Below are positions 9,980 through 54,598 of a stretch of DNA of 64,000 nt, one piece after another. The notes below the pieces were generated by a model. The model searched no databases and was not told the DNA's origin. It saw nothing but the letters and a program-made list of their open reading frames with translations. Each line of letters starts with the position of its first letter. Position 1 is the stretch's first letter. The position numbers and the translations under genes are program-made. Source of the stretch: Ruditapes philippinarum. Lineage: Eukaryota. Where the stretch lies: the NCBI RefSeq assembly GCF_026571515.1, contig NW_026865029.1, forward strand, positions 62,001 through 126,000. Direction: 5' to 3'.

Positions 9980-11389
9980 TTATAATATCTTCACGTTAAA
10001 GTAGTTTCTGTGACACTCGACACATTTGGTCAATTCTGTGCTCTTTCTAACAAATGGTAAAAGTTTCGGTAATGTTGATACAAAAGCCTCTGCGCCAGTT
10101 GATCTACTGTTTACTATCCTCAAACTTTTATCATCTACTTCTGCCGTTTCTCTACAGCTGATATTGTCAATTGACTCTAACATCATTTCTATTTCCTGCA
10201 AAAACTGTTCGCATGGAAACTTGTAAATTTTGCCTCTTAGAATATTATGCTTTCCAAAAAAGATGCTCGGGATATTTAGGGAAAATCTGTCTCCTGGCAT
10301 GAAAACTCTTGCCAATCTGCTTGGTTCAATTTTTTCTTCTTCCGCTTTTCGGTTAAACAGATAGTGTAAACATGAGGCTACTAACGTTTTGAAACAAACT
10401 GCTAGATTCTCTTCCTCTTCACAATGACAGCTATGCTTAAGGACGAGTGTCTTCAATGCATATGAAGGGAGGAATGTAAAGCCATTACCACCATTGAAAA
10501 TATATTTCAAAAGTTTGTAGCAATCTTTATGGTGCTGTCCCATACTCCGCACCAATTCAACTTCAGTTTCGGTAAATACCAAACACATGCATTGCTTTGC
10601 ATCACAAGACGCCTTTTCGCGACAAGAAATCAGCATGACTTTTCCATTCTCCTTCACCTTCCTGAAGAAAAGCGGATCATATGTATCTTTTTCGGAAATG
10701 ATGTCAGGCGTAAGTTCTACCTCTATTGCAGGTGTTATGTCAACTCCTATCGTAATTATCTCACCACTGCGATTGGATTTCCAACGAAATTTAGGAGTAA
10801 ACGCTGGACCGTGTTTTTTGACATGGAAGTTAAAAAACGAATCTGTTTCGATTTCCCCAATATCAGTTTTACATGCGAGTTTATCATTTTGCATGAAGTT
10901 ACACACTTCCTCTCTAAATGCGTTTCCTAAGGTATCAAAATAACCACTTAACCAGTCAGAATGACCTCTCGTAAAATTGCTCTTTAGATATTCACCATCC
11001 ATCCACTTTGCCCAAATGGTTTTCAAACCCGGATCTATGATTTTAACATGAGCATATCCTCTGTTTTTCTCACATGCTCTCTCGACTTGCACACCATTTG
11101 CTTCTATTTTTAGAATAGCTAGGTAATCAAATTCATTCGGGTGACCTACACTTGTTTCTTCAGCCATACTTCCTACTCTGACGACACGTGAAAACTGGAG
11201 CCATCCCACCTTTGACGAAATAGTAGCCACCAAAGTTTCAACTACAAAGTCGACACTGCAAATTATGTCACACATTTCTTTCTTTGTTAAACGAAAATTA
11301 ATTCGTCTTTTGAGTAGATTATGGAAATATTCCGTCAGTTTGAAGTTCTTTTCATTTTCAGAATTTTTGTCGGGCTTTTTGTCTGCCAT
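9980..11389 (-). CDS. cGAS-like receptor (cGLR) / Mab21-family nucleotidyltransferase, subtype A copy 1, 469 aa
   Basis: NTase signature VGSMAEETSVGHPNEFDYL, HGPA, third acidic residue in IGVDITPAI, Mab21 C-lobe motifs HKDCYKLLKY and LPSYALKTLV. Uninterrupted ORF; splice acceptor tttctgacag 37 nt upstream of ATG. Confidence 0.92.
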   Translation of the reverse strand: MADKKPDKNSENEKNFKLTEYFHNLLKRRINFRLTKKEMCDIICSVDFVVETLVATISSKVGWLQFSRVVRVGSMAEETSVGHPNEFDYLAILKIEANGVQVERACEKNRGYAHVKIIDPGLKTIWAKWMDGEYLKSNFTRGHSDWLSGYFDTLGNAFREEVCNFMQNDKLACKTDIGEIETDSFFNFHVKKHGPAFTPKFRWKSNRSGEIITIGVDITPAIEVELTPDIISEKDTYDPLFFRKVKENGKVMLISCREKASCDAKQCMCLVFTETEVELVRSMGQHHKDCYKLLKYIFNGGNGFTFLPSYALKTLVLKHSCHCEEEENLAVCFKTLVASCLHYLFNRKAEEEKIEPSRLARVFMPGDRFSLNIPSIFFGKHNILRGKIYKFPCEQFLQEIEMMLESIDNISCRETAEVDDKSLRIVNSRSTGAEAFVSTLPKLLPFVRKSTELTKCVECHRNYFNVKIL

Positions 11390-12218
11390 CTTGTTATGTT
11401 GTTGCTTTTTGTGAAAGAGTTAATATCTGTCAGAAATAATATTCTTATTATACTTTTAAACAGTAAATTTGAATAACGCAAAGAAATTAATGCTCATTAA
11501 AAGAGTCAAAATTATAAATTGTATCATAAATTCTTGTTTACATTGAACGTCTCTCTTCGCCATAATATCTTTATTTAGTAATAATCCTGATAAAATATAT
11601 ATATTTGTAAACTCCGAGGACAGACATCTTGAGACCTAACTTATAAAGAACAACTGTTGCAACATTATAATTGCATATCAATTAAATGTAATTATATATA
11701 CAAATGTACATGTACAAACCAACATACTGAACCATCAAAATGATAAGAACAACTTACAGAAAATTATCACAATGACTTATTCTAGTTAACAAAATAGGAT
11801 CGAAAATAACGAATGATAACAACACTGATTTTACCTTTATTCTGTTAAAATCTCAATGTAAGTGACAGAGAAATGACAATAACTGACAAAACCAATGAGG
11901 ACATAAATATGTTTACAACAATTGCATCGACACGGCCAGCTTGTTTTTGATGTCAAAAGTACTTTAAGATGAACTGTACTTATACAAATAGTTCGTTCAA
12001 CTTTGTTGAACTTTATGATTTTGACAATTAAACTGCTTGATTAATTACTAACTTGTTTACGTTTTACGCTTTGTGACATACTTAATTAGGTTATCTAAAT
12101 TCATTGAAAACTCAATTATTAATGTATACATATAAACAAAACAAACACTTTTGTACACCTTAACATTTTATAATAACAAACAATAGATTTTAAACATTCA
12201 AATGACGAGTAATAATTT

Positions 12219-12454
12219 GAGCCGCGTCACGACAAAATCAACATAATGCGTTTACGGCCAGCATCCGCGCAGTCTGATCAGGATCCATGCTGTTCGCTTA
12301 CAGTCTGATCAGGATCCATGCTGTTCGCTTACAATCAAGTTGAGAAACTGATAGCGAACAACATGGATCCTGATCAGACTGTGCGGATGCGCAGGCTGGT
12401 CTGGATCCAAGCTGGTCGCAAACGCATTACGTTGGTTTTGTCATGGCGCGGCTC
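12219..12454. mobile_element. Sola2-like palindromic MITE
   Basis: GAGCCGCG...CGCGGCTC ends, 4-bp TSD ATTT (12215-12218, 12455-12458), near-complete foldback, internal 30-bp tandem duplication (cagtctgatcaggatccatgctgttcgctta). Confidence 0.8.
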
Positions 12455-14452: not shown

Positions 14453-15963
14453 TTAAATGCTATACATGTTTTGATCGAAACCAGTTCGATGATTTTTCAT
14501 ATAATGTCTTCCTCTGTATTGCCTGAAGTAATTTTCAAGGCAATTTTGAACAAGTCTGAAATGTTTGTTCATAAATGGTACCATTAGATTTGCATATGCT
14601 TGAGCCCCTGTTTTATGGCCGTTTACAATATTCAGTTCCGAGTAATCAGGTTTCTCCTGCTTATTGATCTCTTCTAAAGATTCTAACATTCTCTCTATTG
14701 AAGAAACAAACTGTTCACGTGTAAATTTGAAATCTTTGCCAACAAGAACGTTATGTGTTTTAATGAAAATACTGGATACGTTAATTCCGAATTTCCATCC
14801 CGGCATAAACATTCTTACCAATCTACTTGGTTCTATTTGTTCTTTCCTTTCAGCCTTGCTAATTTCATACAGCAAAGACGCTACGATGACTTTAAAGCAA
14901 ACTGCCAGATTTGCGTTTTCCCGACAGTTAATGTCATGCTTTATCACAAGCATTTTGAATGCATAAGACGGTATATATGAATATCCTCCTCCGCTGTTGA
15001 AGATGTATTTCAAAAGCTTGTAGCATTCTTTGTGATGATCGCTTAGGTTTCGGACAAGCTCGACCTCTGTCTGCCGTAAATGTTATACGAAAGCAAAGGC
15101 CATCATCACATGCCGTTGACTCATTACACGGAATTAGCATATATCTACCGTGTCTTTCGAGCCTTTTCCATACTCCTGAATGAAATGTTTCATTCTCTGC
15201 AATCACATTTCCGTGTCGTGACATGTTTACTTCTATTGCAAAGTCATATCAATAGTTATCGTCTCGGCCTTCTCCGGGTTTTTGATTCCCATATAAATGT
15301 ATGCATGAACGCTGGACCGTGATTAACAACATCCTTATCGACCCGTAGTGTACCCGTGTTTCTGCTGCATCTTATATCTCCTGAACTTTGAATGACTTTT
15401 ACGACCTCTGACATAAATGCGTTTGACAGACTGTCGTTACAAGGATCCAAAATGCTCTGAAAACGTTGATCTTTTCTTCTCACTTTCCGTCCAACTGATC
15501 TAATAAAACCAACTAATTCAGTGATCTTTCCGAAAAAATCATGACTGAAAGATCCCTTCAGGTAGTCCCCGAGAAGAAAAGGTTCCCAAAGAGATCGAAG
15601 GCGCTGATCCAAAACTTTAACATGTGCATATCCTTCTCTTTCTTTTCCGCTGCAATCGCGTTTAACTTTCACCCCATCCTGATGAGTTACAATAAGAAAA
15701 TCAAACTCATCGGGGTTAACTATGCTCGTTCTTTCTGCCATGCTTCCAACTTTAAGTATTCGGAGTTTGTCATATGGACCTAACCATTTTACATTATTTG
15801 CCACTCGCAAAACAATGTCATGTACTAGTGTCTCTACAGCAAGAACAATGTCTTTTGTTTCATCCGGGGGTATTTGAAACTTAATCTTATTGTTCAGTAA
15901 ATCTCGGAAGAAGTACGTTAGTTTACAGTTCTTCTCTTCTTCAACGACAGACGAACACGCCAT
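14453..15963 (-). pseudogene. cGLR subtype B copy with three small frameshifting indels (young pseudogene or assembly error)
   Basis: ORF pieces 15256-16023, 14934-15224 and 14453-15013 are collinear with the 25323-26801 protein (MACS...VGSMAERTSIVNPDEFDFL...PSYAFKML...CLENYF). Indels at ~15265-15280, ~15241 and ~15073; no nonsense substitutions seen once the frame is restored. Confidence 0.8.
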
Positions 15964-16106
15964 TTCGGAAGTGGATATTTTAGTAGCAGGTGCCTTACAG
16001 AAGATATGATCTTTTTCTTTCAAGACGTTGATACTTGATATGAAAAAGAATAATTAACTTAATTAAGATAAGAAAAAACTTAATTAAGATACAAGCTATT
16101 AGAAAT

Positions 16107-17210: not shown

Positions 17211-18287
17211 CTAATATATGACCCACTCTGTTAGGTCTTTTGAAAGAAATAATCTATACACAGAACACCGCACCAAACCCCTGAGCCATGATCGTGAAAA
17301 GATTGGATTTGAGAATTCAAGTTAATTTTTATAACTTGTCAAATTCAAATATTCCATATCCTCTATACTTACCAAAATAATATACAAGCACACTAGTCAA
17401 GTATGCATTGTTAAAAAACTTTAATTTGGTAATGACATAAAAATGTTTTAGATAAGACGGGTTATCTATTTTTTTGTAGATTAAATATTGACGTTTCTAC
17501 GATTAAATAGCTGTCCTTACAGTTCTAAAGGTATAAATTTTGGCTAAAATATTTTGTTTGCATACTTTCTAAAGTATGTTCGTAATTCAAAGTTTCGAAG
17601 TATTTATATAGCACATTGGCATTAAAATATTAAAAACATAGCAACATCTATTTTGAACAATTTCTCATATTTCGGAACTTCAAATGCAGTAGAGCAACGA
17701 TGCCCAATTGATTCTAATTGTTTTTTCTTTAAAATTCTGTACAGTTCATGTATGAAAAATCCCCATTGAATTAACTAGGTAAATTTAACTTATTTTAGTT
17801 TATTAATTAAAGCACGTTCGTTCTATTTGAAAGGGTTTTGTATTGTGCACAATTTAGATGCCTTATTGTTCCATTTTCTTTTTGTTTTTAAGAATAATAT
17901 CTTAGGTACTACCAATACTAGATAACCAAATTAGTTTATTAGTATAGGTAAAAGTTTATTAGTACGTATATTTACGAAAATGAAATTGGTCAGGCAAGCT
18001 TGGCCACAGTATAAGTTTATCTTTAGTTTAAATCGGCTTATGGTCGCTAAACCTCATTAAATGCCCCAACAGGTTCAATAAACGAGAGAATTTGTGTAAA
18101 TAATAAACTTTAAAAACGAATACCACACCAAGGGAAATTTGGAAATCTCTAGCAGTAACTGTGTGTAAGGTTACAAAAGGTGAAATATGTAAAACACAAG
18201 AGTGATCATGTAAAAATAAACATAACAAAGGTACCATATACCTTACTAGGTTCTCTACTGGCACAGTGGTGATATTTGTGCATTTTT

Positions 18288-25322: not shown

Positions 25323-26801
25323 TTACCGTTTTCTTCCATATGACCTGAAATAATTGTCAAGGCAATTTTGACAAAGTCTGAAGTCTTTTCTCATGAATGG
25401 TACCATTAGATTTGCATATGCTCGAGCCCCTGTTTTATGGCCGTTGACAATATTCAGAACCAAATCATCGGGTCTGTCCTGTTCATTGATCTCTTCTAAG
25501 GATTCTAGCATTCTCTCTATTGACGATAAAAATTGTTCGCATGGAAATTTGTAATCTTTGCCATCAAGAATGTTGTGGTTTCTGATGAATATACTGGAGA
25601 TGTTTATTTTGAATTTCTCTCCCGGCATAAAAAATCTTAACAACCTGCTTGGTTCTATTTGTTCCACTCTTTTTACCTTGGTAATTTCGTACAGCAATGA
25701 TGCCAATATGACTTTAAAGCAAACTGCCAGATTTGCATTTTCTCGACAGTTAAAGTCATGCTTTATCACAAGCATTTTGAATGCATAAGACGGAAGATAA
25801 GAGTATCCTCCCCCACTGTTGAAAATGTATTTCAAAAGCTTGTAGCATTCTTTGTGATGATTGCTTAAGTTTCGAACAAGCTCGACCTCTGTCTCCGTAA
25901 ATGTTAAACGAAAACAAAAGCCCGCAACACATGATGTTGACTCATTACATGGAATAAGCATATATTTTCCATGTCTGATGAGCTTTTCCCACACTTGTGA
26001 ATGAAATGTTTCATTCTCTGCTATCACATTACCGTGTCGTGACATGTTCACTTCTATTGCTAAAGTCATATCTATATTAATCGTCATTTTTCTATTATGC
26101 TTTGATTCCCAAATAAATGTTGGCATAAATGCTGGGCCGTGATTAACAACATGCTTGTCTACAGTTAACGTACCCGAGTTTCTACTACATCTTAAATCTC
26201 CTGAATGTTTAATAACTTTTTCGACTTCTGACATAAATGCATTTGCCAGACTATCGTTATACGGATTTAAAAGACTCTGAGAACTTTCACTTTGTAATGG
26301 GTCTCTTCGCAGCCATTTTCTGCCTACTGATTTAAAATAGCCATATAATTCAGTAACCTTTCCAGTAAAATCATGGCTAAAAGATCCTTGCAAGTAGTCC
26401 CCGCGAAGAAAAGGTTTCCATAGAGACTGAAGGCGTTGATCAGTTACTTTCACATGTGCATATCCCTCTCTCCACTTACACACGCGTTCAACTTTGACCC
26501 CATTTTGGTGAGTTACAATAAGGAAATCAAACTCATCAGGGTTAACTATACTCGTTCTTTCTGCCATGCTTCCAACTTTAAGTATTCGGAGTTTGTCATA
26601 TGGACCTAACCAGTCTACATTGTTTGCAACTCTTTTAACGATATCATGTACAAGTGTCTCAGCAGCGAGAACAATGTCTTTTGTTTCATCCTGAGAAGAC
26701 CGAAAAGAAACACGGTTGCTCAATAAATCCCGAAAGAAATATGTAAGTTTACAGTTTTTCTCCTCTTCGACGGCGGATCGCTGAGGTTTTGAGCAAGCCA
26801 T
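25323..26801 (-). CDS. cGAS-like receptor (cGLR) / Mab21-family nucleotidyltransferase, subtype B intact copy, 492 aa
   Basis: VGSMAERTSIVNPDEFDFL, HGPA, INIDMTLAI, CFRLTFTETE, HKECYKLLKY, LPSYAFKML. Single uninterrupted ORF; acceptor tttgcag 80 nt upstream of ATG. Confidence 0.92.
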   Translation of the reverse strand: MACSKPQRSAVEEEKNCKLTYFFRDLLSNRVSFRSSQDETKDIVLAAETLVHDIVKRVANNVDWLGPYDKLRILKVGSMAERTSIVNPDEFDFLIVTHQNGVKVERVCKWREGYAHVKVTDQRLQSLWKPFLRGDYLQGSFSHDFTGKVTELYGYFKSVGRKWLRRDPLQSESSQSLLNPYNDSLANAFMSEVEKVIKHSGDLRCSRNSGTLTVDKHVVNHGPAFMPTFIWESKHNRKMTINIDMTLAIEVNMSRHGNVIAENETFHSQVWEKLIRHGKYMLIPCNESTSCVAGFCFRLTFTETEVELVRNLSNHHKECYKLLKYIFNSGGGYSYLPSYAFKMLVIKHDFNCRENANLAVCFKVILASLLYEITKVKRVEQIEPSRLLRFFMPGEKFKINISSIFIRNHNILDGKDYKFPCEQFLSSIERMLESLEEINEQDRPDDLVLNIVNGHKTGARAYANLMVPFMRKDFRLCQNCLDNYFRSYGRKR

Positions 26802-27154
26802 TTTGTTGTGGAGTGTCTACTCACTGTAAGGTTTCTTAACCGAAAACACAAGCTTTTTTTTACACAGTCTGGTTACCATCCCTGCAAATTATGGCAATAC
26901 TATCATGAAAATATATGAATGTAACTAAAAATGCGAGAAAAGAGAGCACACCTTGCAAAATGGCGAATGGCGCTCAATATTTAAGACAGATTTTTAGTCC
27001 AATATTTTGTCAACAAATTTATTCCTCATCAGGAATATTTTTTCGTATTTTACAATAATATTTTAAGATAATATAGAAATAATAAGTAAAAATAATAACG
27101 TTCAAACCTTACTTTTTACGCCCCTAATTTTGTCAAAACATATAAAATAATATA

Positions 27155-28382
27155 ACAAAAGGGCCATGATGGCCTTGAGGTCGCTCACCTGTATATAGGC
27201 CCCCGGAGCGGGGCCAGTTTAAACCCCAGGGCTGTTATTTGAACAAACTTGGAAGACACCCATTAGAAGATGTTTCATGATGTTAAGTTTTTACTACACA
27301 CATATAATGAAAAAGAATGACCTCTGCCCCCACCCCCGGCAGTACCAATTTTAACACAAGGGCTTTTATTTGAACAAACTTCTTAGACACCCACAAAAAG
27401 ATGTTTCATGCTAAACATCTAACCTCTAGCTCATTGGATTTTTTAAAAGAAGATTTTTAAGTTTTTGCTATACACATATAAGGAAAATCAATGACCTCCG
27501 GGGCAGGGCCAATTCTGACCCCAGGACTTTTATTTGAACAAACTTTGTAGACACTCACTGGAAGATGTTTCATGCTTAATATCTAAACTCTAGCTATTTG
27601 GATTTTTTCAAAAAAGATTTTTTAAGTTTTTGTTATACACACATAAGGAAAATCAATGACCATCAGGGCGGGGCCAATTTTGACCCCAGGGCTTTTATTT
27701 GAACAAACTTTGTAGACACCCATTAGAACATGTTTCATGCTAAATATCTTAGCTCTAGCTCTTTGGGTTCTTTCAAAGAAGATTTTTTAAGTTTTTACTA
27801 TATGCATATAGGGAAAATCAATGACCCCCTGGGGCGGGGCCAATTTTGACCCCAGGGCTTTTATTTGAACGAACTTGGTAAACACTCACTAAAAGATGTT
27901 TCATGCCAAATATCTAAGCTCTAGCTCTTTGGGTTTTTTAAAAGAAGATATTTAAATTTTTTCTTTCGGTTGCCATGGCAACCAGAGTTCTGCATGGAAT
28001 TAAATTCTTTGAATAATTTTTAAAGGTGACCACCAAAGGAACATTCCTGTGAAGTTTGGATGAAATTGGCTTAGTGGTTAATGAGGAGATGTCATTTAAA
28101 GTAAAAGTTTACGGACGGACGGACGTACCAATTTTTCAGGTTTATGAGCTATTTCTATTGTTCTTTTCTTTTGTTTCCTTGTGGGCTAACTATTGTTTCC
28201 TTATGAGCTAACTATTATTTACGGAATGAAATCCTTTGTTCTCTTTTGTCCCAGTGTACTGTTAGTTAGCTCATATACCTAACATGTTTGTGCGGACGGA
28301 CGGACGACGGACGGACGGACGGACGCCGGACGAAAAGCGATCACAAAAGCTCACCCTGTCACTTTGTGACAGGTGAACTAAA
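27155..28382 (-). mobile_element. Non-autonomous Helentron carrying ~4.5 copies of a 166-bp oyster Cg170/HindIII-like satellite
   Basis: gggcggggcc at 27666 and 27832 gives a 166-bp period. (GACG)n microsatellite; gctcacc subterminal repeats; terminal hairpin cctgtcac-ttt-gtgacagg. Empty site in the paralogous block near 54960. Small nested insertion at ~28125-28290. Confidence 0.85.
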
Positions 28383-30574
28383 AACATTGTAAATTTTCTT
28401 AACTTATTAACATAAAATCGTTTACCTGACACTTCATTGTAATGACAACAAAATCATAGCAATAAAAACCAACATGATGATCAGTAACATTTAGTTGTTC
28501 TAATTTTTATAACATTTGTCAATTTTAATTATTCTTTTCTTGACAAAGTTTAACGTCTTTGTTCCTATTTATAGTACATAAAATACATAGCTCATGTTTG
28601 TACAATAAAATATCTCTGTTATCTTGAGTGCCTATTGAATATTTACTTTTCCATGATTTATAACGGACTTGACGTACTTGCTTTATATATTTATGCTTGT
28701 CACAAATGGTTTAATGCCACATCTTATCTATGTGTATTCCACCTAAAGAAAGTTTCAAGAGCTTAATTTGACGAATCGTTACAGTACCAATTTAGATTAC
28801 AGAACAGGCTCAATCAAACCGAGCCTGGAACATTTTCAATTTTGCCGTGTTGAGCTTTCTTTAGGGATTCTTATTTTCCCTATTTGATATCATTTTATTT
28901 GTTTAAGATGTGTGTGTTTTTTTAAATTATACAGCTTTATTCTTGAATAAATGAATATGTAAATAAGTTAATTGTGAAAATATAATATATATAAGCGAAA
29001 CATTTTGATAAATAAATCTAATAATAAATTAGTACAATGCAATTTTTGTATTTCTTTTAATTCAGTTTATGAAATAAGAATATATACAACCTAGCCATGT
29101 ATTTTTTACCTTTTTTAAAAAATATTTGTATTCCAACTATTTGAAAAAAAAATATATCCCCGTAATCTTTCCTGTAGCCCAATGTCTACATTATTAAAGA
29201 GATATGTACAAACTAATTCTTTTAAAGTATTTAAACAAAATAATTGTACCACTAAATAACTATCAGAAAACGTTTCGCGGTTCATCATGCTCTATAGGAA
29301 TGATTAAAATTTAAGGATCCTTAAAATCGAGAATACACGTTAAAACTATTCAATTTATAATTTGATTTTATTAGATTTTTTTCAAAATGTTCAAATAAAA
29401 GACTTCGCTAATGGTTTTGTTTTCTAAATGTGATACATTACTTGCTAGCAATGTTAAAAGAAGATATTGAAAATTGTTATGTGTACTTAACGTTATATTG
29501 TTCATATCCTAGAACTTATTATCTATTCTTATATTTGACAAGTTTTAAATATTTATCTTGTTATTATTTAAAGTAATACTTATAAATATTGATATATTGG
29601 TTAACATAATAAGAAAAAATAATAAAAGAGTACCAGAATTAATAAAATAGTTCCGCACTTTTTAAGTATTGTTCATTTATCGATCACCTGTCCGTATGAT
29701 TGAGACAAACTTAAAAAGTTTGGCTTGAGATCAAATCTTGATAAGGAAGTAAAGTATATTCAGATTTACGGGAAAAGAGATAAGGTGACATGAAAATTAA
29801 GTTATCATATATGCTGATAATAATAAAAGTTGCAATGTCATTGTGCGATTATGTGAATTTATTACAGTGTTTCAGCTCAATCGACAATTGACATTATTTA
29901 TTTCATTGATAGCAGAAGTTTACTGCATGAACAATGCAAATTTATAAGCTATACATGTATTATTAATACTTTTGTTTTAACATTTAAACAAGTGGTTGAA
30001 ATTTATATATTATTTGATAGTCACAATGTAAAGACTACTCACTGGAAAACTAATTTAAGATATATTTTAAATCAGGAATGTTATGTGAAATAAATTAAAC
30101 GTGATAAAGCGGCTTTAGCTTTTCTAAATGTTAAATATGTTATTCTTTTAGATAAATCGTTTCATATAATTGTCAAGTCAAAAGAATAAAGGTAGAAAAT
30201 GAAATTTGAAGTGATTAACACACACAAACAATAAGGAAACTCCTCGATACCTCAAATCTACCCGTCCGCTCTCTAAATGTGAATTAGTAAAGCCACGATC
30301 TTCTATTTTTAGAAACGAACTCTAAATTAATAGCTCTCAGGTTGAATGCTTAACAGTGATATGATGCAACTTTTCCGAGATATAATTTCTTAAATTTGAA
30401 ACAACACAGAATGACAAAAAAGCTGAAGGCCGCTTAATTTTAAATCGAGTGCATAAAAATACCAAACATGTATAAAATATTGTCAATATTCTTAAAAACA
30501 CAAGAAAGTTAATTTCATGAACAATATAAAATTATTCAATATTAATAATATTTTTTTAACAATGTTTCTTAACA

Positions 30575-36000: not shown

Positions 36001-36007
36001 AACAAAA

Positions 36008-36587: not shown

Positions 36588-39500
36588 TTTTATTACTAAT
36601 TGGCAATATTATAATGTGTAATGATATCAAGCAATAATCTTTCTTCTCTCAATACAATTCGATAAAAGTTACTGTTGTTGTCGTGAAAACAGTCACATTA
36701 GGACATTACCTATTCTGCAAAAAGTCTCAATCTGAAACTTAAAGTAAGAAAAATAGCAAACTATAACTTTTCTGCTGAAGAAAAAAAGTAATACATGTAC
36801 AACCTTGCAAGAATGTATTTAATAGAAAGTTATGAGTTATTTCATAAAAATAATGGATACACGAACTTTGTTTGCAATTTGGCAAGAATCTAAACTGTAA
36901 CAGAAATCTGGGTATAAACTGTAACAAAATTGGATGAAAGTCGCTAGGTCTATGCTGTAACCCTTCAAAATTAACCACGCCATATACTGTAACATTGTTT
37001 ATTTTTTCAAACGCATTTTACCAACAGGAAAATAGATTCAACTGGTCATTTACTTTTATAAACGTTTCTAAACATTAAGGACTAAAGTTTTGTAGATTTA
37101 CTTTACCTAGGCATGCATAAATAATGTCGGAATGGGAGAAAAATGCGTTGGTCTCTCGATTCAAATTTTTAAACCGTCAAATCTGCACATTTATGAGACA
37201 ATATAGAAATAAATCTGCGGTGCAGGGTCTGAAGAAATATATGACTAAATACCGGATTCTGTTCCTTACAAGCAAAGCACAAAAACATCTTTTAGAAACT
37301 AAACTACTAGTATCGCATGGACCGGAATAAAAATCACCTACCTCTCTTCCCATAAATAATCCTTCATCTTGAAAATTCTATACTGTAACCGAAAAACGCA
37401 ATACTGTAACACGTTCCCTACGGTGATAAATCAAAGGACAAAGCACCACTTCAAGGGCATTGTCAACTTACCGTGATAGTTCTTGTTTTACATAACTTTG
37501 TCAGTCTTCAGTTCAGGATAAACACATGTATGTGTGTATCACACAGATTGTGAAATTGTTGAAATATTCATAAAAACCCCGTGATGTTCACTCGTGCCAC
37601 ACTAAAGTATACGAAATAAAATACCTGGTTTACCTCCACTGATTAGTTCTTCTGTTAATCTGATGACTTGTGAATAGGAAGAATAATTTTCAAAAAAAGA
37701 AAAAGAAGAACTATTGCAAAGAAAAACTATTGTACAAAAACGTTTTGATTGCTTTTGGTAGATTGAAAATTGTATTCTTGCCATTTGAATTACATATTAA
37801 AACCAGACAAGCACTGCGCTTGTCTTGCTCACAACGAGGTTATGGTGCTCACAACGAGGACTAAAGCAAAAAAGAGTATATCTTCGTTTCTACGAAGACT
37901 TTCAGATAATAATTTACGCTGAAGACTTGTGGGCATCTGTTTTATGTTAGAATGCACAAAACGTCACCAGAATCGACGTTTTCAATGTTAAATTAGGTCC
38001 AAAGAGAAGTTGTCTCCAGTTTTCCAGCTACCCCGAGTGACTGCACCGCACGGTATTTCCATCAAATTGTCCACCAACAGGCAATATCTTTACATGTGCA
38101 TACTCGGAAAACACATCGCTAGCTAACTGCATTCCGATATTTTTACATAAATGTCTGTAATCTTCAAAAATTATGAAAAACTCACCTTGTTTATCGTGTC
38201 ACACGTCATAGATGGGTGCTCACAACGAGGAACGGAAGTTGCTCACAACATTTTTACCGATTGACATTTTTCACTCGTTGTGAGTTAAACGGGTTAAACT
38301 TTTCTCGCTAATAAAATATATATATGATGTATCATAAATTCTTTTTAAATATTTCTGACAGAATATATGGCCGTATATAAACAGATATTTGCAATACAAC
38401 CGTTTATATAGGGCCACAAAACCTGTCAAAATCTTTATGACTAATAATATAAGCGGATCAAAATTTTTTTTGATGTAATCATATTTTTGTTTATAATACT
38501 GTTGGCAATAAAGAAAAGGTTGATCTGAGTCAAATTTCACTCTTCAATGGGATACCCCGGGTTAATCCATTAACCCTTTTCCCTGGTAGAAAGTTGTTCC
38601 AAGTCTTAGCCAGGTAATAGCCTTGTCAATCTTAATGTTTTGAGAGTAATTGGCTAAAACGCACTGAAGAATTGTTATGCTAATTTGATGGCAGCTATTT
38701 TGAATTTTTGTTTACCATTTATCTATTACATATTGTCTTATTATATATAAGGCATCGGTGGGTGAGTTTGAAACAGGCTCAATGAAACCCGGTGAGATTT
38801 AGAACAGCTTTCGCTACCATGTCTGCTTTTTAGTTTCCGGCTATCTCTATGTGTGCTGGGCACCAAATAATAGTTATATTAATTTGGGGAGGTACGGCAA
38901 ATCAGAATTATTAGTTATATGAGTTAAAGATGTGTCAACAACCGGAATCATAAGGGCCGAGGGCATATTTCTAGCTGGTCGTCGTTCGGAAGTAGGGACA
39001 TCTTTCACGTCTCAGTCTTTCACCAACAGATTAGAACTTACTACGAAGGGGGAGTGGGGGGGGGGGGTTCTTTAAACTTGGAATAAGCAATGCCACAAAA
39101 TCAAAGAATGCGATACACCTGTTTTTTTTTATCCTATTGGACCTAATCCGGGTATGGTGTTTTAGGGTCTGTTTTTGATTTCAGCCTCAACATCTTGGTC
39201 CCGAGTTGCTGTAGGCCACAGGTCCCCAAGTGCCACCCTTATGGCAGTGATTTGAATAATATCTAGTTTTTTAAGAACATTGTTATTAACACTAGAATAG
39301 ATTTGTGCAACCCACTCTATTTTTGAACATTAAGGATTATATAGAAATATAATGCTACTTTACCTCGTTCCAAAATCAGCGCCTTTTAATATACGCATGA
39401 CATTCACTTTCTCATCAAAAGATTTTTTTTTTCAAAAAAAGTTTACGTGTAATCTGTTAAGTTTGAGAGACAACCGAAACCTTACAAGCCTGGTATGTGA

Positions 39501-43871: not shown

Positions 43872-45290
43872 ATGGCAGAGTCTAAAAGATGTAAAGATCT
43901 TGACAAAACGTCTGAACCTGAACAGAACATCAAATTGACCGAATATTTCCGTCGTCTTCTTAAAAGAGAGATCAATTTTCGTCTTACTAAGGAAGAATTG
44001 TGTGACATAATTTGCAGTGTCGACTTTGTAGTTGAAACATTAGTGGCTACTATTTCGTCAAAGGTTGGATGGCTCCAGTTTTCACGAGTTGTTAAAGTAG
44101 GAAGTATGGCTGAAGGGACAAGTGTTGGTCGTCCGAATGAATTTGATTATCTAGCAGTTCTGAAAATTGAAGCAGGTAGTGTTCAAGTGGAACGCACTTG
44201 TGCAAAAAGAAGAGGTTACGCGCACGTTAAAATTGCTGATCCGAATTTGAAAACGATTTGGGGAAAGTGGATGAACGGTCAATACTTGACCAGCGACTTT
44301 ACCCGTGGACAATCAGACTTTTTAAGTGGCTATTTTGACAGCTTAGGTAATGCGTTTAAAGATGAGATATACCATGCCATGAATAACGCACATAGTAATC
44401 TTGTGTATAGAACTAAAATCGGGAAAATCGAACCAGAATCGTCTTTAAACCTCGATATTAAAAGGCACGGTCCAGCGTTTACACCAAAATTTGTTTGGAA
44501 ATCGAAGAATAGTGATGAGAAGATTACTATTGAAGTTGATATCACACTTGCAATAGAAGTAGAACTTACACCTGACATTATTTCCGAAACAGATACTTTT
44601 GATCCACTTTTCTTCAGGAAGGTTAAAGAGCATGGAAAAGTCATGTTGATTTCTTGTCGTGATAATGCATCTTGTGATGCAAAGCTATGCATGTGTTTGG
44701 TATTTACCGAAATCGAAGTTGAGTTGGTGAGGAATATGGGACAGCACCATAAAGAATGTTACAAACTTTTGAAATATATTTTCAATGATGGTCGTGGCTA
44801 CACATTCCTCCCTTCATATGTTCTGAAGACGCTTGTCCTTAAACATAACTGTCATTGTGAAGAGGAAGAGAATCTAGCAGTTTGTTTCAAAACGTTAGTA
44901 GCCTCATGTTTACACTATCTGTTTAACCGAAAAACGGAAGAAAAGATTGAACCAAGCAGATTTGCAAGAGCTTTAATGCTAGGAAAAAGATTTTCCCTGA
45001 ATATCCCAAGCATCTTTTTTAAAGAGCATAACATCCTATACAGCAAAAATTACAAGTTTCCTTGCGAACAGTTTTTGCAGGAAATCGAAATTATGTTAGA
45101 GTCGATCGAAAAAATCAGCTATAGGGAAGAGGACAATGACGACGACGAAAGTCTTGATATAGTTACTAGCATATTTACTGGTGTTGAGGCTTACTTATCA
45201 ACATTTCCATTTTTCAGAAAGGAAAAAGAATTAACATTTATAAAATGCTATGAATGCTACGGGAACTACTTCAATGAAAATATATTATAA
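43872..45290 (+). CDS. cGAS-like receptor (cGLR) / Mab21-family nucleotidyltransferase, subtype A copy 2, 472 aa
   Basis: VGSMAEGTSVGRPNEFDYL, HGPA, IEVDITLAI, HKECYKLLKY, LPSYVLKTLV. Collinear with 9980-11389; acceptor ttcag at 43821-43825. Confidence 0.92.
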   Translation: MAESKRCKDLDKTSEPEQNIKLTEYFRRLLKREINFRLTKEELCDIICSVDFVVETLVATISSKVGWLQFSRVVKVGSMAEGTSVGRPNEFDYLAVLKIEAGSVQVERTCAKRRGYAHVKIADPNLKTIWGKWMNGQYLTSDFTRGQSDFLSGYFDSLGNAFKDEIYHAMNNAHSNLVYRTKIGKIEPESSLNLDIKRHGPAFTPKFVWKSKNSDEKITIEVDITLAIEVELTPDIISETDTFDPLFFRKVKEHGKVMLISCRDNASCDAKLCMCLVFTEIEVELVRNMGQHHKECYKLLKYIFNDGRGYTFLPSYVLKTLVLKHNCHCEEEENLAVCFKTLVASCLHYLFNRKTEEKIEPSRFARALMLGKRFSLNIPSIFFKEHNILYSKNYKFPCEQFLQEIEIMLESIEKISYREEDNDDDESLDIVTSIFTGVEAYLSTFPFFRKEKELTFIKCYECYGNYFNENIL

Positions 45291-46281: not shown

Positions 46282-47127
46282 TATAAGAATCTTACACCGG
46301 CTGCCGGTACAGACCGGAATATCTAGCTCGAGGGTAACTGTTTACAGCGGTAACGAGGCTCTGCCGAGTTTCCGCTAAACAGTTACCCGAGAGCTAGATA
46401 TTCCCGTCTGTACCAACTGCCGGTGTTTGATTCTTTTTCTTGCATATTACATGTCAATTATTTTCGGAACAGAAATTATGAAAACTGATATTCTCATTAC
46501 GCACTTTTTTCTTATAGTAGCGTATGAACATACAACTTCATTCATAACGGAAAAATGACGTCATCCTAAGAACGCGATTCATTCATAAAAGTCGCGCGTC
46601 AATGACGTCATTTAAAGCACGCGACTTGTCTTACATGGGGGGTGTAAGACAGAGTTTTCTAGCACCGGTGTAAACGGTAGATAATCCTGTCTGAGATGCA
46701 AGAATATAAGAATCTTACACCGGCTGCCGGTACAGACCGGAATATCTAGCTCGAGGGTAACTGTTTACAGCGGTAACGAGGCTCTGCCGAGTTTCCGCTA
46801 AACAGTTACCCGAGAGCTAGATATTCCCGTCTGTACCGACAGCCAGTGTTTGATTCTTTTTCTTGCATATTGTATGTCAATTATTTTCGGAACAGAAATT
46901 ATGAAAACTGATATTCTCATTACGCACTTTTTTCTTATAGTAGCGTAGGAACATACAACTTCATTCATAAGGAAAAATGACGTCATCCTAAGAACACGAT
47001 TCATTCATAAAAGGCGCGCGTCAATGACGTCATTTAAAGCACGCAACTTGTCTTACATGGGGGGGTGTAAGACAGAGTTTTCTAGCACCGGTGTAAACGG
47101 TAGATAATCCTGTCTGAGATGCAAGAA
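46282..47127. mobile_element. Head-to-tail dimer (2 x 423 bp) of a hairpin-containing Crypton-like non-autonomous element
   Basis: tataagaatcttacacc starts at 46282 and 46705, and both copies end gcaagaa. Internal long IR around aacgaggctctgccgagtt; few mismatches between copies. Confidence 0.8.
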
Positions 47128-48261
47128 TAAGTGATATTCTATTATTAAATTTAATAACAAAATCTGTAACAAATGTACAGAAGTGATTGTACTTATAGAA
47201 GTATTTTGTGTATGTATTTATTACAGTTTTAAAGACCTTTGGTTGTCTATTAGAATAAAAAATGATAAAATAATGATTGTCTTTTTGAGTAATTACAGTT
47301 GGTCATAAATGATTTTTTCCTGATCAAATTTAAAGGAACTCTGTTGATGTCAAAAGCACACAATTATTAGATTTGAATTTCTTACATCAGCTGAGGAATA
47401 TAGAACAGATAAATAAGAAATCATATATATCACAAATAAATTGAAAATCGTTTTGTGTGAAAAAGCGATAATTTGAGTCGTCTTTTAAAAATAAGAATAA
47501 TTATTCTAGAAAAACGTAGTGCGCGAATGATTATTTTGGAAACATGTTATTGGTCAGACTTACATTAGATAAAACAATAATATTAAAAAAATAATTTACA
47601 GTCCCTTTCAAACTCACTTATTTAGCTAATTCTTAAGTCTTAACTGTAATTAATTTTTATGCAGGCCTTTTAACTTTTTAAACTACATTTGAATTGACTT
47701 TGCGACTTGGGCAATATTGATGTTTTCATTTATTTTTGTTTGTTGTTGTTTTTTTTAAAAATATTATATGATTTATTTGGTTTAACTGTACAGTACTTTT
47801 GAACGTGTTAATGTGCATGTCAAACACTTTAGTGGAGTCATTTAAAAGCAATTTGTCCTGTTTTAAGTGCACTTGAACCGCGCGGGTGCTATTTTCTATT
47901 TACTGATGTCATGAAGGTTACTTTGTTCTTTGCTTTACTGTACTAAAAATGAGGCTTTATCCATAATGAAATATGGCAATACCTTGCAAGCAGCAGATTA
48001 TCATACACATCCACTCATGCCTTCGATGTTACTTGCGACGATAGTGTTGAAGATTATGGAAAAGCTGAAATGAATAATTTATCTGGAAGGCAACTAAATA
48101 CACCAGCTTCTGCAACAATAACAAGGTCAGATTGATATGTCTCGCAAAATCATATCAATGGTATGATACGGATGCATCTGTTTTCTTGACCAACTTGTAG
48201 AATTGACATTTGAAAATGTTTTTATATAAATTCATTAACAAACTATATCGCTTGGGTTTTG

Positions 48262-50537
48262 GTTTAAACATATTTTATTCTATATATTTACATTACGATG
48301 AACAATATTTACACAATACATTTGGGATTGGGCAGAAAGCTATGAAAGCTTATGAGTGTCCTGTCCCAGTTTAAACAATTTACATATATACAGTTCATGG
48401 CATTATCATGCACAAAATTCATTTAGTTGAAAATATATCAAAGACATTTTCAAAAAATATGTATTTTGCAATTAATAAATACTTAATATATGGTCATGAG
48501 AAAAAAAAGCAAAAGAAAAATGAAACAAAATGGAGGTGAAAAAATAAATTATTATATGACAGAGATTAATTTAGTTAGAAGTCGCCGTTTAATTTTCACC
48601 TAGGAATGTGCAATCGAAAAGACACTGTTTATTAACGGAGACAAAAGAATGTAATAAGAATCTTAATTGATAGTTATAAAGTACAATTATGTAATTACGA
48701 AAAAAACAACAACAAAAAACTACCAGCTAATATTGACAAAAAAAAACAAAAAAATTGAGAAAGAAAAGGAGTGGTGGATGAACAATAATAAAGCAGCAGG
48801 AGTAAACAAAGATGCATTATATAGTAACTATGTATGTTTAGATGAACAAGCGTAAGTAAGACTTGGGGTACGCGCTAAAAGCGCTTCGTTTCTCGGATGT
48901 ATTTTTGAACAGCTGTAAAGATAGTTACATTAGACTCGTAAGATAAAGAAGTGTTTCCAGTAAGAATGACATTTAAAGAAGGATTACAAAATTGGGAAAT
49001 AGCCGTTATTAATTCTGGTCGAAGGTTAGTTTATTTAGGGCATTCCAAGAAATAGTGATAAGCATTTTCTCTCGGACCACATTCGCAAAATAGAGATTCG
49101 ATAATATTCTTTTCAAATAGATCGGCAGAAAGCGAACTGCAGTGAGTGCGTAATCTTGTGTGAAAAATTTGAAGTTTGCGATCACCAGAAAGAAAATAAG
49201 CAGGCACACTTGGCAAATCAAGGCGCTTAAAAGAAGCTAAGGTTGGGGCATTTTGCGTTTGAGGTGGAAGAGAATTGAAATCTCTGATAACAGAAGGCAA
49301 GAATGATTTATAGTAATAATCTGTATTTGTGTGAATATTCTGTGTGTCGTTTGAGTTCCGGAGTGGGTACCGATGCTCACTACCAACAGACGGAGGGACA
49401 AGGTCAGAGAGGTATTGAGGGGTAAGACTTTTTTTCATTTTAAAGAAAAGAATCAATTTATGTTTGTAACGCCTTTTTTCCAAGGATTCCCACCCAACTT
49501 CTTTCATGAGTTTATCAATAGACACAAGTTTAGTTGTTCCGGTAATTATTCTAGCTGCTTCTTGGTGAATTTGTTCGAGCTCTTTTTTATCATTTTGATT
49601 ACAATTGTCAAATAATACATCTCCATATTCTATAATCGGTCTAATAAATGATAGGTATATGATTTGTAGTGAGTTCCTGTCGAGTTGAAATTTTAGTTTT
49701 TTCATGACATTTATTCTTTTCCAAGCTTTATTTTTAATGTATTCAATATGTGTTGACCAACGTAAATCATGAGTAAAAGTTATACCTAAGTGTTTGTGAT
49801 TACGTACTTCTTTTATTTGTGTGTTTTGCATAAAAATAGGAGGATGATTTATAAGTCTGTTTGTTTTACGCGATATTAATAATGATTCTGTTTTAAGGGG
49901 ATTGAATTTTACCAACCACCTTTCGGCCCAAGAAGTTATGTTTTGCAAATCTGTGTTTAGGATAGTGGAAGCAGTGATAGGGTCTTCTACAACAATAAAG
50001 AGATTTGTATCGTCAGCGAAAAGTCTTATATTTGCATTAATATCGATAACAATATCATTAATATAAACAAGAAACAACAGTGGCCCAAGAATAGACCCTT
50101 GCGGCACACCAGCGTTTATATAACTAAAAGATGATTTACAACCAGGGAGAACGACTCTCTGTCTTCTGTTCTTGAGATAAGAAGAAAACCAAGAAGAAAG
50201 ACGACCAGATATGCCGATCGAATTTAATTTGAAAATAAGTCCTTTGTGCCAGACTCGATCAAACGCTTTACTTATATCACAAAAGACAGTTCTGACTTCT
50301 TTACCAGAATCAATGGCCTGTGCAAAAATATTATATAAATATGTTAATTGGTTGACAGTGGAGTCTCCGGGAACAAAACCAGATTGAAGAGATGTGATAA
50401 TGTTGTTAGATCTCAGAAAATTAAACGTGTGTTTAAATATAATTCTTTCAAAGACTTTGTTGACTGTACTAATTAGGTATATGGGTCTGTAATTATTAAC
50501 TAAAGAAGGGTCACCCGATTTAAAGAGAGGAGAAACA
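48262..50537 (-). mobile_element. 5'-truncated CR1-group LINE with 10-bp TSD
   Basis: TSD TTGGGTTTTG at 48252-48261 and 50538-50547; RT ORF; 3' UTR ending aataaaatatgtttaaac on the minus strand. Confidence 0.9.
48875..50537 (-). pseudogene. LINE ORF2 reverse transcriptase fragment (endonuclease missing, one premature stop at 49031-49033)
   Basis: Motifs NYRPI, QSGF, DISKAFDRVWH, GVPQGSILGPLLF, FADD, HLG, CECG...HYFLECP. The frame continues after the TAA to ...YIRETKRF*. Confidence 0.9.
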
Positions 50538-53180
50538 TTGGGTTTTGCTTGAACATTAGTAGTCAACTTTGTTTGTCGGCCAAAAAAAAAACATTTATTT
50601 TGTAGTTTGCTAGTGTTATACTTTATAGAACGAACGAAGTCATTTACTTTGTAAAAATAAGTTTTATAGAAATAGTTATGCTTCGTAGAACGTTCCTTGT
50701 GACATAAAAATAGCGAAACAATCCAGGTTTATAAATGTTTACATACGGGAAGGACAAGTAAGCGCAATTGCGGTGCACAATGTTGTGATGCGCACGTACA
50801 AGTAATAACTGTTAGTGTGTTTTCACATGTTTACAAATAGAAAAAATGAAGAAAATTAATGTTCTTGCTGTAAGGATTAAGTAAAATTAGTAAAAGCATT
50901 ACCTTTTATTCAGACTGATATATGTTAAACACCTAACCAAACCAGCTTACATTTTACAGTAATATACTTAAATATTTATCATATTACAACAGTCTAAAAT
51001 CACCGTAAGTTCGGTTATATTCGCTAATTTATATAGGAAGCCTAAATAGGAACACACTGGAACGGAACCACAGATGATGCATTTTCCTGATTTTGTAGTG
51101 TGTCTGTAATTAAATAAATATTGGCACTGCAAAATTTGCTAATATTTATAAAAAAGTGAGCCACAGTCATTGTTTGTCCGATATGGAAAAGATATATTTC
51201 TATAAAAATAACGACTGGTCTATTAGACATTGCACGCCTTAAAAAGCCTGCCATTTGTTTCTTTCTTTGGTAAAGATAGGAGAAGTACCGTATTGTTTTA
51301 GTTCTTTGCCTTTTGTAACCAATAAGCAATCAAGTTCTCATTGAAAACCCTTCTGTTACATGTTCAAACTGCTATGAAACTATATAAAAGTTTCCAACTG
51401 TTCAAACGTGACACAAACGATGACTGGATCATAGCCTTTGTAACGGCATACTCAATCTTAAATTTCCTGTTACCATGGCAACGCGGGGAAATCTCAAAAT
51501 TGCCAAAAATCACTATTTTGCGTTGATTTTCCCATCAACACTGATTTCAAAGAAGAGCAACTTATTAATGGATTGAGATAGAGTCAAAGGCTTTACAGCG
51601 TTGGGTACACGTTACCTTAAGGTCGACCAAAGGCCATTCTAGTTTCTCACAAGTGCAAAATTTTCTTGGAGATGAGGAGGTCGGCTGATTTCTTCAAACC
51701 CCCGATCGGAAGGGGGCATTTTTCCCCTCTGGCACCGATTGATGTATCTATTTGGCAGGGGATGGCGCGGATCACTTTTTTAACAAAGTTTCTCAAACGA
51801 AAACTAGTGTTAGGGGTCTAGGTGGAGTTTTTTTCTCACTTTTTGAGGTCTCAAAAGGGGAGGGGGTAAAAAGGCGTGAAAAAACGTCTGTATGAAGTGA
51901 TGAGTTAAACAAAAAAGAATGGACGCTGTAAGCCTATAGATAAGTACAATGGTTTTGTCATCAAAAATTTGCAGCATTATTCTAAGGCTATAAACGCTCC
52001 TGACTCAGTCTTTTATCAATTAGATGAAGATATTTTGGATGGTTTCCGGAATAAACTCTCGTATAATATCTGTGTGGCCGCAAGCAAGTCTGTTGTCTTG
52101 TCGTTGTTGTTAAATTAAATGTCTGTTCATATTGCGCGACATTTTCTCCCAATGTGTTCTTATTGAGCAACCTGACACAAGAAAGCTAATTGTTCGTGCA
52201 CTAATTTAATGATTAGCTTATGCTTTGCATATTTTATCAACCAAATAATTCCACAAAGTATATTAGTTTATTTGTTCCCGTACACGAATCGATTCCTGTA
52301 GAACAGTTAGGATGAACGCTTATGTATATCATGATCAATATGATTACGCATGTGAAAGACGTGATTGAAATGACTGTTTCTCTGTTTGCAAAATGACACA
52401 TTTAAGCATAAAGGAGATCTTTACTTCTCAAACTTGAAAATTTCTTAAAAGGAGACGAACAATGCACAAGCTAACGCACAAAGTTGTCAAGTACACTATT
52501 TTAACATAAATTGACAAAGATAAATACATGAACGGATCGGAGTTACAAAGCATCTGTATTTGCACCAGTAAGTAACTTAAAGTTTCTGATAAATTAAATA
52601 AAAGAAAGAGACCAAAAATTGCGTGCACAGGTAAATTCGTGACCAAAATATAAGAAACGAATTAAGATATAATTGTTGTCTAGAAAAGCAAAAGAAAAAA
52701 ATTAGTAAGTTAGTAAATATTTACAATTAGAGTTAATGTTCTGCATAAGAATTGAAAGCATTTGTTGAATAAAAATTAAATGTATATTTATGACATTTTA
52801 TTGGCAAACAATGTTGGTGTGATATATTGGCAATACTTCATAGACGTACGTACATTACAATACAAACAAAATACAATAGATGCAGAACACAAAACACAGG
52901 GCACCACAGTTTCTAAAAAACAACACTGCGACATGTACACAAATGGATTTCTCTTATTGGCAAATCTCGTATTAGTTACGTGTGAAATGTTTGTCTGTTT
53001 CTAATGTATAACCAAGTTGACCTCAAGTATCTAAATACAATGCACCAATATGTGGTCAAAAGGGGGATAAATTTAGAATCAGAAAAACAGTTCATAAACA
53101 GCAAATATAAGACTTGTCATATTCTATATCTAGAATTTCCCGATCAATGTAGAGAATCAATACCGTACATGCTTTAAGCT

Positions 53181-54598
53181 TTACCGTCTTCTTCCATATC
53201 GCCTGAAATAATTGTCAAGGCAATCTGTACACAGTTTGGGGTCCTCCTGGGCTCCTTGCCACTGGCACTTGTTACTGGGTCGGGTGGGGGCTGCGTTCAT
53301 TGGACGCCGCCTTTCCTTGATGATCTTGTTTATCGTATATTTTCTGATGAAAATACTGGAGATGTTTATTTTGAATTTCTCTTCCGGCATAAATAATCTT
53401 AACAACCTGCTTGGTTCTATTTGTTCTTTCCTTTTCAGCTTGGAACTTTCGTACAGCAAAGACGCTAAGATATTCTTTTAAACCCAACTGTCAGATTTGC
53501 ATTTTCCCCGACAGTTAAAGTCATGCTTTATCACAAGCATTTCGAATGCATTAGATGGGAGATAGGAATTTGAATGGAATCTGTTGGACTAGAATACCAA
53601 TGACAGCTGCACAGAGTGAGTTCATTAATATCCTCCTCTGCTGTTGAAGATGTATTTCAAAAGCTTGTAGCATTCATTGTGACTATTGCTTAAGGTTCGA
53701 ACAAGCTCGACCTCTGCCTCCGTAAATGTTACATGGAAACAAAGCCTGCATCACAAAATGTTGACTCATTACAAGGAATAAGCCTATATTTTATATGCCT
53801 GATGAGCTTTTCCCACACTCCTGAATGAAATGTTTCATTTTCTGCAACCACCTTACCTTGTCGTGACATGTTTACTTCTATTGGTAAAGTCATATCATTA
53901 TTAATCGTCATTTTTCTATTATGTTTTGATTCCCAAATAAATGTTGTCATATGTGCTGGGCCGTGATTTACAACATGCTTGCCTACACGAAGAGTAACCA
54001 AGGTTCTAATACATTTTAAATCTCCTGAAAATTTAATGACGTCGACGACTTCTGACATAAATGCGTTTGCAAGACTATCGTTAAACGGATTCAAACGACT
54101 CTGAGAACTTTCACTTTGTAATGGGTCTCTGCGCAGCCATTTTCTGCCTCCTAATTTTGAATAGCCATATAATTCACTTACTTTTCCTGTAAAATCATGG
54201 CTAAACGATCCCTGCATGTAGCCCCCGCGAAGAAAAGGTTTCCATAGAGACTAAATGCGTTGATCAATTATTTTCACATGCGCAAATCCCTCTATCAATT
54301 TACACACGCGTTCAACTTTGACCCTTTTTTGGTGAGTTACAATAAGTAAATCAAACTCATCTGGCTAACTATACTCGTTCTTTCTGTCAAGCTTCCAACC
54401 TTAAATTTTCGGAGTTTGCCAAATGGACCTAACCAGTCCACGTTATTTGCAACTCTTTTAATGATATCATGTACAAGTGCCTCAGCAGCGAGAAGACCGA
54501 ACAGAAACTCGGTTACTCAATGAATTCCGAAAGAAATATGTAAATTAACAGTTTTTCACCTCTTCGACGGCTGCTTGCTGAGGTTTTGAGCCAGCCAT
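53181..54598 (-). pseudogene. cGLR subtype B pseudogene (duplicate of 25323-26801)
   Basis: MAGSKPQQAAVEEVKNC* early stop; a deletion after RVSVR; -1 deletion just before DEFD; further stops and frameshifts; ~60-bp insertion at ~53570-53628; replaced segment at 53239-53340. Confidence 0.92.

Follow-up and report, generated by a model that had tools for sequence, protein, structure and literature searches.

Some bivalve genomes hold more than 200 cGAS-like receptor (cGLR) proteins, and in the screen by Li et al. many enzymes were active, 15 of them being selected (10.1101/2023.02.22.529553). Oyster cGLRs make 2'3'-cUA in vitro, and the same study suggested that the ligands of cGLRs extend beyond nucleic acids (Li et al., 10.1101/2023.02.22.529553). 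In shrimp, three Mab21 proteins have been described that make no cGAMP, bind no nucleic acid and act through IKK-epsilon (PMC12928593). The gene array described here bears on a wider question, namely which ligands and products belong to the hundreds of cGLRs of bivalves. The gene family and its expansion in bivalves are already known, and a cluster of cGLR genes in a bivalve is, as such, expected; what is new is a predicted His-His-Cys-Cys zinc site, together with a difference in the putative acceptor pocket between neighbouring paralogues.

Gene copies in the window and along the contig

The window, i.e., the whole 64,000-nucleotide stretch of Ruditapes philippinarum DNA that was analysed, contains five paralogues in the order A(-) B*(-) B(-) A(+) Bpsi(-), as the preliminary description had it and as six-frame translation and tblastn bear out. 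The copies and the DNA upstream of the last one are as follows:

9980..11389, minus strand: A1, intact single-coding-exon cGAS-like gene of subtype A, 469 aa, pI 8.0
14453..15963, minus strand: B*, subtype B, with three 1-nt indels in this sequence (near 15268, 15240 and 15073); the copy on contig C10575 is whole, 503 aa
25323..26801, minus strand: B, intact cGAS-like gene of subtype B, 492 aa, pI 9.0
43872..45290, plus strand: A2, an inverted duplicate of A1 and likewise an intact cGAS-like gene of subtype A, 472 aa, pI 6.1
about 53205..54598, minus strand: Bpsi, decayed copy of B with several-to-many indels and stops
54780..58180, minus strand: DNA upstream of Bpsi, which resembles that upstream of B (26866-30274) at 64-79%, about 3.5 kb being common to both

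The coding region is a single exon in each copy. A1 and A2 are 81% identical in DNA and 75% in protein, and the A and B proteins of the window are 44% identical, the range between subtypes being 44-53%. By eye, a splice-acceptor-like tract can be seen about 40-80 nt upstream of the ATG in most copies, which suggests that these possess 5' untranslated exons. Contamination with a bacterial CD-NTase gene is ruled out by clam repeats, the splice-acceptor-like sites and clam homologues, and the bivalve origin is borne out by close homologues labelled Ruditapes philippinarum and Mercenaria mercenaria.

The count of five members in two subtypes proved too low. The contig carries nine copies in three subtypes (2 A, 3 B and 4 C), seven of which are open reading frames of 458-492 aa. 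The third subtype, C, is represented by four intact genes outside the window, at 256, 278, 304 and 321 kb, i.e., 130-200 kb further along the contig than the window cluster, and no paralogues beyond these nine came to light when the retrieved parts of the contig were scanned with a profile. Genome-wide, 81 of the 128 candidates scored matched Mab-21, a figure that is not a copy number, and the array is therefore one of many such loci in the genome.

In a quick tree of 35 rows (SH-aLRT support only, midpoint root, none of the rows a characterised cGLR), subtypes A, B and C form a single long-branched clade (SH-aLRT 100). The Mercenaria protein P0008 was placed within A, Mercenaria P0004 beside C (94), and two further proteins beside B. 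As A and C have Mercenaria orthologues, the subtypes are judged to be old and to predate the split from Mercenaria; P0008 and P0004 are apparently encoded on one contig, which suggests that the cluster is conserved in that clam.

The set of whole copies differs between related sequences. Contig C10575 is colinear with 12.2-26.3 kb of the window at 88-99.7% identity and, on the simplest reading, is probably the second haplotype, a recent segmental duplicate being a possible alternative. B* cannot be called a fixed pseudogene, as the gene is whole on this probable second haplotype. The C10575 and window copies of B* are set apart by three single-base coding indels within 200 bases, along with 14 substitutions over 1,700 bases. 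The protein P0003, from a separate contig, differs from window B* at 1 of 230 residues and runs in frame through all three indels; it is itself split further on, B* thus being broken at another place on that contig. Since P0003 and C10575 are both in frame over the indels, those of the window may be assembly errors or mark a null allele. The counterpart of B on C10575 lacks codons 1-169, carries a net 13-base insertion and is frameshifted, so that the window has B whole and B* broken, whereas C10575 has B* whole and B broken. As for Bpsi, its upstream DNA was duplicated together with the gene, which rules out a retrogene origin and indicates that the copy arose by DNA duplication and not by retroposition.

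All eight within-subtype pairs have a dN/dS of 0.19-0.34, dS being saturated in all 20 between-subtype pairs, and by this measure the paralogue pairs are under purifying selection. The birth-and-death evolution proposed in the preliminary description is borne out by the haplotype-variable broken copies, the tree and these dN/dS values on intact copies. It would be highly improbable that the genes are neutral, decaying duplicates with no present function: two of the five window copies are broken as sequenced, as are B on C10575 and B* elsewhere on the separate contig, but the dN/dS values, the occurrence of intact close homologues of all three subtypes in other data sets and the seven long open frames among the nine contig copies are at odds with such decay.

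Fold, catalytic residues and a predicted zinc site

The two domains proposed for checking the assignment gave different answers. Pfam Mab-21 (PF03281) was matched above the cut-off by A1 (E 1.3e-6) and A2 (E 1.1e-7) and just below it by B (E 5.8e-4, 20.4 vs 24.1 bits), and Mab-21_C was matched by none of the window proteins. In the Atlas, the first matches of the window proteins were Mab-21, at 0.96-0.97. A Pfam match to Hepsin-SRCR (E 0.6) was rejected. When solved structures were searched with single sequences, A1 found cGAS weakly (E 0.005-0.2), and the sole match of B, myomesin (E 0.1-0.7), was rejected as chance.

A profile of 118 sequences, composed of three window proteins and 115 homologues of near-full coverage (shorter matches were left out, and one of the searches from which they were chosen listed the best 150 of 1,192), matched mouse cGAS at E 1e-28 in one continuous alignment over 334 cGAS residues, so that the homology spans both the nucleotidyltransferase (NTase) core and the C-terminal helical bundle. 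The cGLR1 structures 8gjy and 8gjw were matched at 6e-27 and 2e-21, and MAB21L1 scored 9e-16 against the 1e-28 of cGAS. AlphaFold models were obtained with a pLDDT of 90.3 for A1 and 88.0 for B, and all 39 rows shown in a Foldseek search with the A1 model were cGAS, the top one being 4k96_B (E 2.7e-15, TM 0.72 by target). The claim of a cGAS/cGLR fold with a catalytic triad is thus upheld by AlphaFold, by Foldseek for the A1 model, by the profile match and by the intact acids, which in A1 are located as follows:

11126..11176, minus strand: activation loop and first two catalytic acids of A1, V72-G73-S74 ... E86-F87-D88
10733..10744, minus strand: third catalytic Asp of A1, D217, which the model places on a beta strand
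10394..10534, minus strand: helical lobe of A1, with K288/K292/K295, S309-Y310-K313 and the conserved H287, H319, C323 and C332 (predicted zinc site)

The G[S/G] loop and the Glu-Asp-Asp triad (G73-S74, E86, D88 and D217 in A1) are found likewise in A2 and B, and GS-x11-EFD, the third Asp, HHKxCYKLLK and SY-x2-K could all be recovered, as first reported, from the three intact open reading frames. The triad is intact in 113 of the 118 aligned homologues, which stand at 18-30% identity, and K295 and K313 are kept in 117 and 116, respectively. The Lys/Ser/Tyr positions that in cGAS-like enzymes hold the triphosphate are thus retained.

The zinc thumb of cGAS (H390-C396-C397-C404) is absent from the clam proteins, the cGAS segment appearing as an unmatched insertion relative to the family profile. 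H287, H319, C323 and C332, on the other hand, are kept jointly in 107/118 homologues, nearly as well as the triad, and from this conservation the His-His-Cys-Cys set is predicted to form a zinc site different from the thumb. A second candidate metal site (C106, H114, C262 and C267) was rejected: it is complete in just 47/118 homologues, and although its residues tend to be found together, G178 and C290 go along with them as well, so that shared ancestry can explain the pattern. The word zinc is absent from the main text of Li et al. (10.1101/2023.02.22.529553), and neither the array nor the His-His-Cys-Cys site was found described in listings of the openly available literature on bivalve, mollusc or zinc-binding cGLR/Mab21 proteins.

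Subtype differences and a proposed mechanism

In cGAS, guanine is read by T211, R376, S378 and S380 (PMC4897736). Two features of the window are of interest in comparing the subtypes:

10568..10591, minus strand: A1 strand aligned to the guanine-reading strand of cGAS, with Cys269/Val271 at cGAS Arg376/Ser378 (Arg/Thr in B and C)
26307..26354, minus strand: inserted helix peculiar to B (residues 150-165); it forms part of an insert in the NTase core, about 30 residues long and mildly basic, that models as a helix

The equivalents of T211/R376/S378/S380 are V/C-or-S/V-or-A/T in all five A-type proteins and V/R/T/T in eight of the nine B- and C-type proteins, the ninth having V/R/A/T; the arginine is found in 0/5 of the former and 9/9 of the latter. 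Because A has lost the guanine-reading Arg and Ser while B and C keep Arg/Thr, the products of A and of B/C are likely to differ. Pocket residues predict the product loosely, as the cUA-making oyster enzymes, compared by eye, keep both Arg and Ser. The subtypes also differ in charge (pI 9.0 in B and in whole B*, 8.0 in A1, 6.1 in A2 and 5.9-8.1 in C), and among the window genes the B type alone exceeds 8.5, the value above which nucleic-acid-sensing cGLRs, with their long basic surface, typically lie (Li et al., 10.1101/2023.02.22.529553). Pocket residues and pI together give a sequence basis to the difference in product pocket and charge that had been postulated between A and B. The N-terminal spine lacks a basic character, its net charge ranging from +3 to -6 across 14 close members, and the position of cGAS Lys362 is occupied by Cys, Ser or Thr, being non-Lys in 14/14 close members, and that of Lys384 by Val or Leu; as judged from the missing lysines and the non-basic spine, these features argue against DNA binding in the manner of cGAS.

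The pairing of A and B that had been suggested drew solely on their neighbourhood, and the arrangement is not one-to-one. An obligate pair, be it a sensor with a catalytic partner or a heterodimer, seems quite improbable: the two lie interspersed in the window, are unlike each other in charge and in acceptor pocket and belong to lineages that are both old, but each subtype has a full triad, neither the ratio nor the order is one-to-one (2 A, 3 B, 4 C), and the C group lies 130-200 kb off with no A or B neighbours.

No STING domain was present in the eight window open reading frames scanned, and none of the matches of a search for STING across the genome fell within the window, in agreement with the preliminary description. 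Elsewhere in the genome, on contig C7837, STING_LBD exons adjoin a TIR exon, representing a TIR-STING-like gene, and we infer a link between this gene and the array.

We consider it probable, with appreciable reservation, that the array encodes cGAS-fold, ligand-gated sensors making cyclic dinucleotides for a STING located elsewhere, with subtypes that would differ in trigger and product; on this reading, the genes would be active sensors. A ligand would bind and order the GS loop, and two Mg ions held by E86/D88/D217 would join two NTPs into a cyclic dinucleotide. B, with its pI of 9.0, extra basic helix and Arg/Thr pocket, would be the best candidate both for sensing nucleic acids and for retaining guanine as acceptor, and A, with a pI of 6-8 and a Cys/Val pocket, would use another acceptor base or ligand. 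Where cGAS has its zinc thumb, the clam proteins would rely on the His-His-Cys-Cys zinc site to brace the helical lobe, and the product could reach a STING such as that encoded by the TIR-STING-like gene.

The proteins might instead be active nucleotidyltransferases that yield something other than a cyclic dinucleotide bound by STING: they could make a linear oligonucleotide, or transfer a nucleotide to a protein or membrane effector. The uniform absence of lysine at the Lys362 position in the 14 close members, 40-60 extra residues in the NTase core and the presence in 19/118 relatives of at least two C-terminal hydrophobic segments, which suggests an own membrane output in some clade members, would all agree with this explanation. 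We nonetheless regard it as unlikely, as the closest solved fold and profile matches are cGAS and cGLR1 and not OAS or other NTases, and as the genome does contain a STING-like gene.

With sensors that signal through cyclic dinucleotides as the preferred reading, a broader and decidedly tentative view can be put forward. The array may belong to a cGLR branch of at least 118 proteins, mollusc-rich and mostly unannotated, in which a His-His-Cys-Cys zinc site replaces the thumb, neither plain dsDNA nor plain dsRNA is the trigger, several distinct nucleotide signals, at least one of them unlike the known animal ones, are sent by tandem subtypes that differ in acceptor pocket, and the sensor set varies between haplotypes. 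The array provides a compact natural comparison, in which close paralogues that differ in acceptor pocket, charge and one inserted helix could reveal rules of product and ligand, and should stocks of this farmed clam prove to segregate for whole and broken copies, these could be relevant to its resistance to disease.

Comparison with described receptors

By the structural criterion of Li et al., the clam proteins fall with the cGLRs, the AlphaFold model of A1 being homologous to cGAS. The sequence motif of that study, h[QT]GS ... X50-90 ... third acid, is not matched literally, as Val precedes GS and 128-151 residues lead to the third Asp; since Table S1 of Li et al. itself has rows with VGS and with spacing above 100 (10.1101/2023.02.22.529553), the motif was not applied to the letter. 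Seven short A/B/C motifs, searched in the Mercenaria-rich Table S1 as exact words within the first 400 letters of each cell, so that diverged kin would be missed, gave no matches, and an eighth, HGPAF, gave 44, of which the 20 inspected were all in non-molluscan rows. One of six wider-clade motifs matched Crassostrea virginica XP_022289212.1 in the same table. Compared by eye alone, this oyster protein resembles the clam clade in HHKKCYK, SSY-x2-K, H...C...C and a spacing of about 133 residues ahead of the third Asp, and is unlike it in that GS is preceded by Thr and that the Lys362 position still holds Lys; by this pattern, the wider clade has already been catalogued as cGLR. XP_022289212.1 was sample 4 of the screen and is not among the 15 selected actives (Li et al., 10.1101/2023.02.22.529553), which is weak evidence against cyclic-nucleotide activity.

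The shrimp proteins LvMab21-1/2/3, compared by description, are alike in that several Mab21 paralogues of an invertebrate make up a set that serves in immunity (PMC12928593). They offer a precedent for a further explanation, namely that the clam proteins are scaffolds that activate a kinase of the IKK-epsilon/TBK1 type and make no nucleotide. The non-basic spine, the missing zinc thumb and the position of the clade-like oyster protein outside the selected actives are in line with this, but we think it doubtful, as the triad, kept in 113/118 homologues at 18-30% identity, and the retained triphosphate-binding Lys would be needless for a pure scaffold. The clam proteins also differ from MAB21L1/2, for which Li et al. 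predict no functional active site, in that their triad is intact.

Insect cGLR clusters, i.e., Drosophila cGLR1 and its relatives, are similar in that related genes are clustered as a result of recent amplification, and Li et al. (10.1101/2023.02.22.529553) present insects as the exception in the clustering of cGLR genes. The clam cluster differs in having three subtypes that predate the Mercenaria split.

Vertebrate cGAS (PDB 4k96 and others) gives the top Foldseek and profile matches, and the equivalents of E225/D227/D319, K407/K411/K414 and S435/Y436/K439 (human numbering) are kept. The clam proteins differ from it in an identity of 16-19%, an rmsd of about 5 A and about 100 extra residues, and they lack the zinc thumb, have Val at the K384 position and, in subtype A, are without the guanine readers. 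With the animal cGLRs, including the oyster Cg-cGLR1 and Cv-cGLR1 (dsDNA, 2'3'-cUA), they have in common the NTase core and helical bundle, the GS loop and the acidic triad and, as described by Li et al., a single-domain protein and a radiation of bivalve genes. They differ from these in the Val before GS, the 128-151 residues to the third Asp, the His-His-Cys-Cys set and the lack of Lys at the Lys362 position; the oyster enzymes with activity have a length of about 360 aa, and the His-His-Cys-Cys set was not seen in them by eye. Given the departures from the literal motif, we file the clam proteins as variant cGLRs and not as typical members of the family.

Open frames, repeats and mobile elements around the array

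Several features were recorded in the window that holds the five cGAS-like paralogues (A1, B*, B, A2 and Bpsi), and two more outside it on the same contig (C13516 of the clam genome, G000):

Window 5498-6721, + strand: 408-codon open frame, charged and of low complexity
Window 7860-9183: 21/105-base satellite with an inverted arm
Window ~26818-26880, - strand: upstream ORF of B, ~20 codons, read by eye
Window 27345-27962: 165-base tandem array, in the near upstream region of B
Window 33690-35227 and 36889-38293: pair of long inverted repeats, 91-94% identity over ~1.1 kb
Window 46282-47129: 423-base near-perfect duplication with internal palindromes
Window 49034-50728, - strand: reverse transcriptase ORF (Pfam RVT_1, 1.8e-30)
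G000:C13516:43871-44479 (L043): KH-domain exon, ~28 kb before A1
G000:C13516:263413-268306 (L039): ORFs resembling Gag, integrase and RT/RNase H

The 408-codon frame has no Pfam match, its sole match in a search of this genome is itself, and it is probably an exon belonging to a neighbouring gene. The KH-domain exon is presumably FUBP-like. By eye, the short upstream ORF ends shortly before the start codon of B. The inverted repeat pair sits between B and the inverted A2, and the RVT_1 ORF, which we take to be LINE-like, lies between A2 and Bpsi. The Gag/integrase/RT-RNase H-like ORFs, read by eye as a Ty3/gypsy-type retrotransposon, are flanked by two of the third-subtype C genes.

Genes on other contigs

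Contigs bearing C-gene copies and a sister type, D:
G000 contigs C13474, C14994, C5131 and C13004

The C-gene copies are probable haplotype copies, one of them broken. Type D, more distant than these, occurs on two other contigs, with one D split.

TIR and STING_LBD exons:
G000:C7837:110836-115234 (L027), TIR Pfam 5e-12

Here the STING_LBD exons adjoin the TIR exon and are followed by another TIR-like exon, read by eye and without a match in a Pfam search; judged from sequence, the locus is a TIR-STING-like gene.

Hydrophobic segments and the activation loop

Two to five hydrophobic segments lie C-terminal to the cGAS-like domain in 19 of 118 clade members (relatives listed: P0017-P0019, P0032, P0036-P0058), which might represent a fusion of the enzyme to a membrane part. 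In section 5 of their survey, Li et al. (10.1101/2023.02.22.529553) name these domain types: ankyrin, TPR and tandem cGLR.

The residue preceding GS (window 11174-11176 in A1, with equivalents in other members) is Val in 93 of the 118 rows. The clade shares this Val with the designed constitutively active cGAS of 7lz3 (VGS) and differs from the wild-type cGAS there (TGS), and by analogy its members may be partially ligand-independent.
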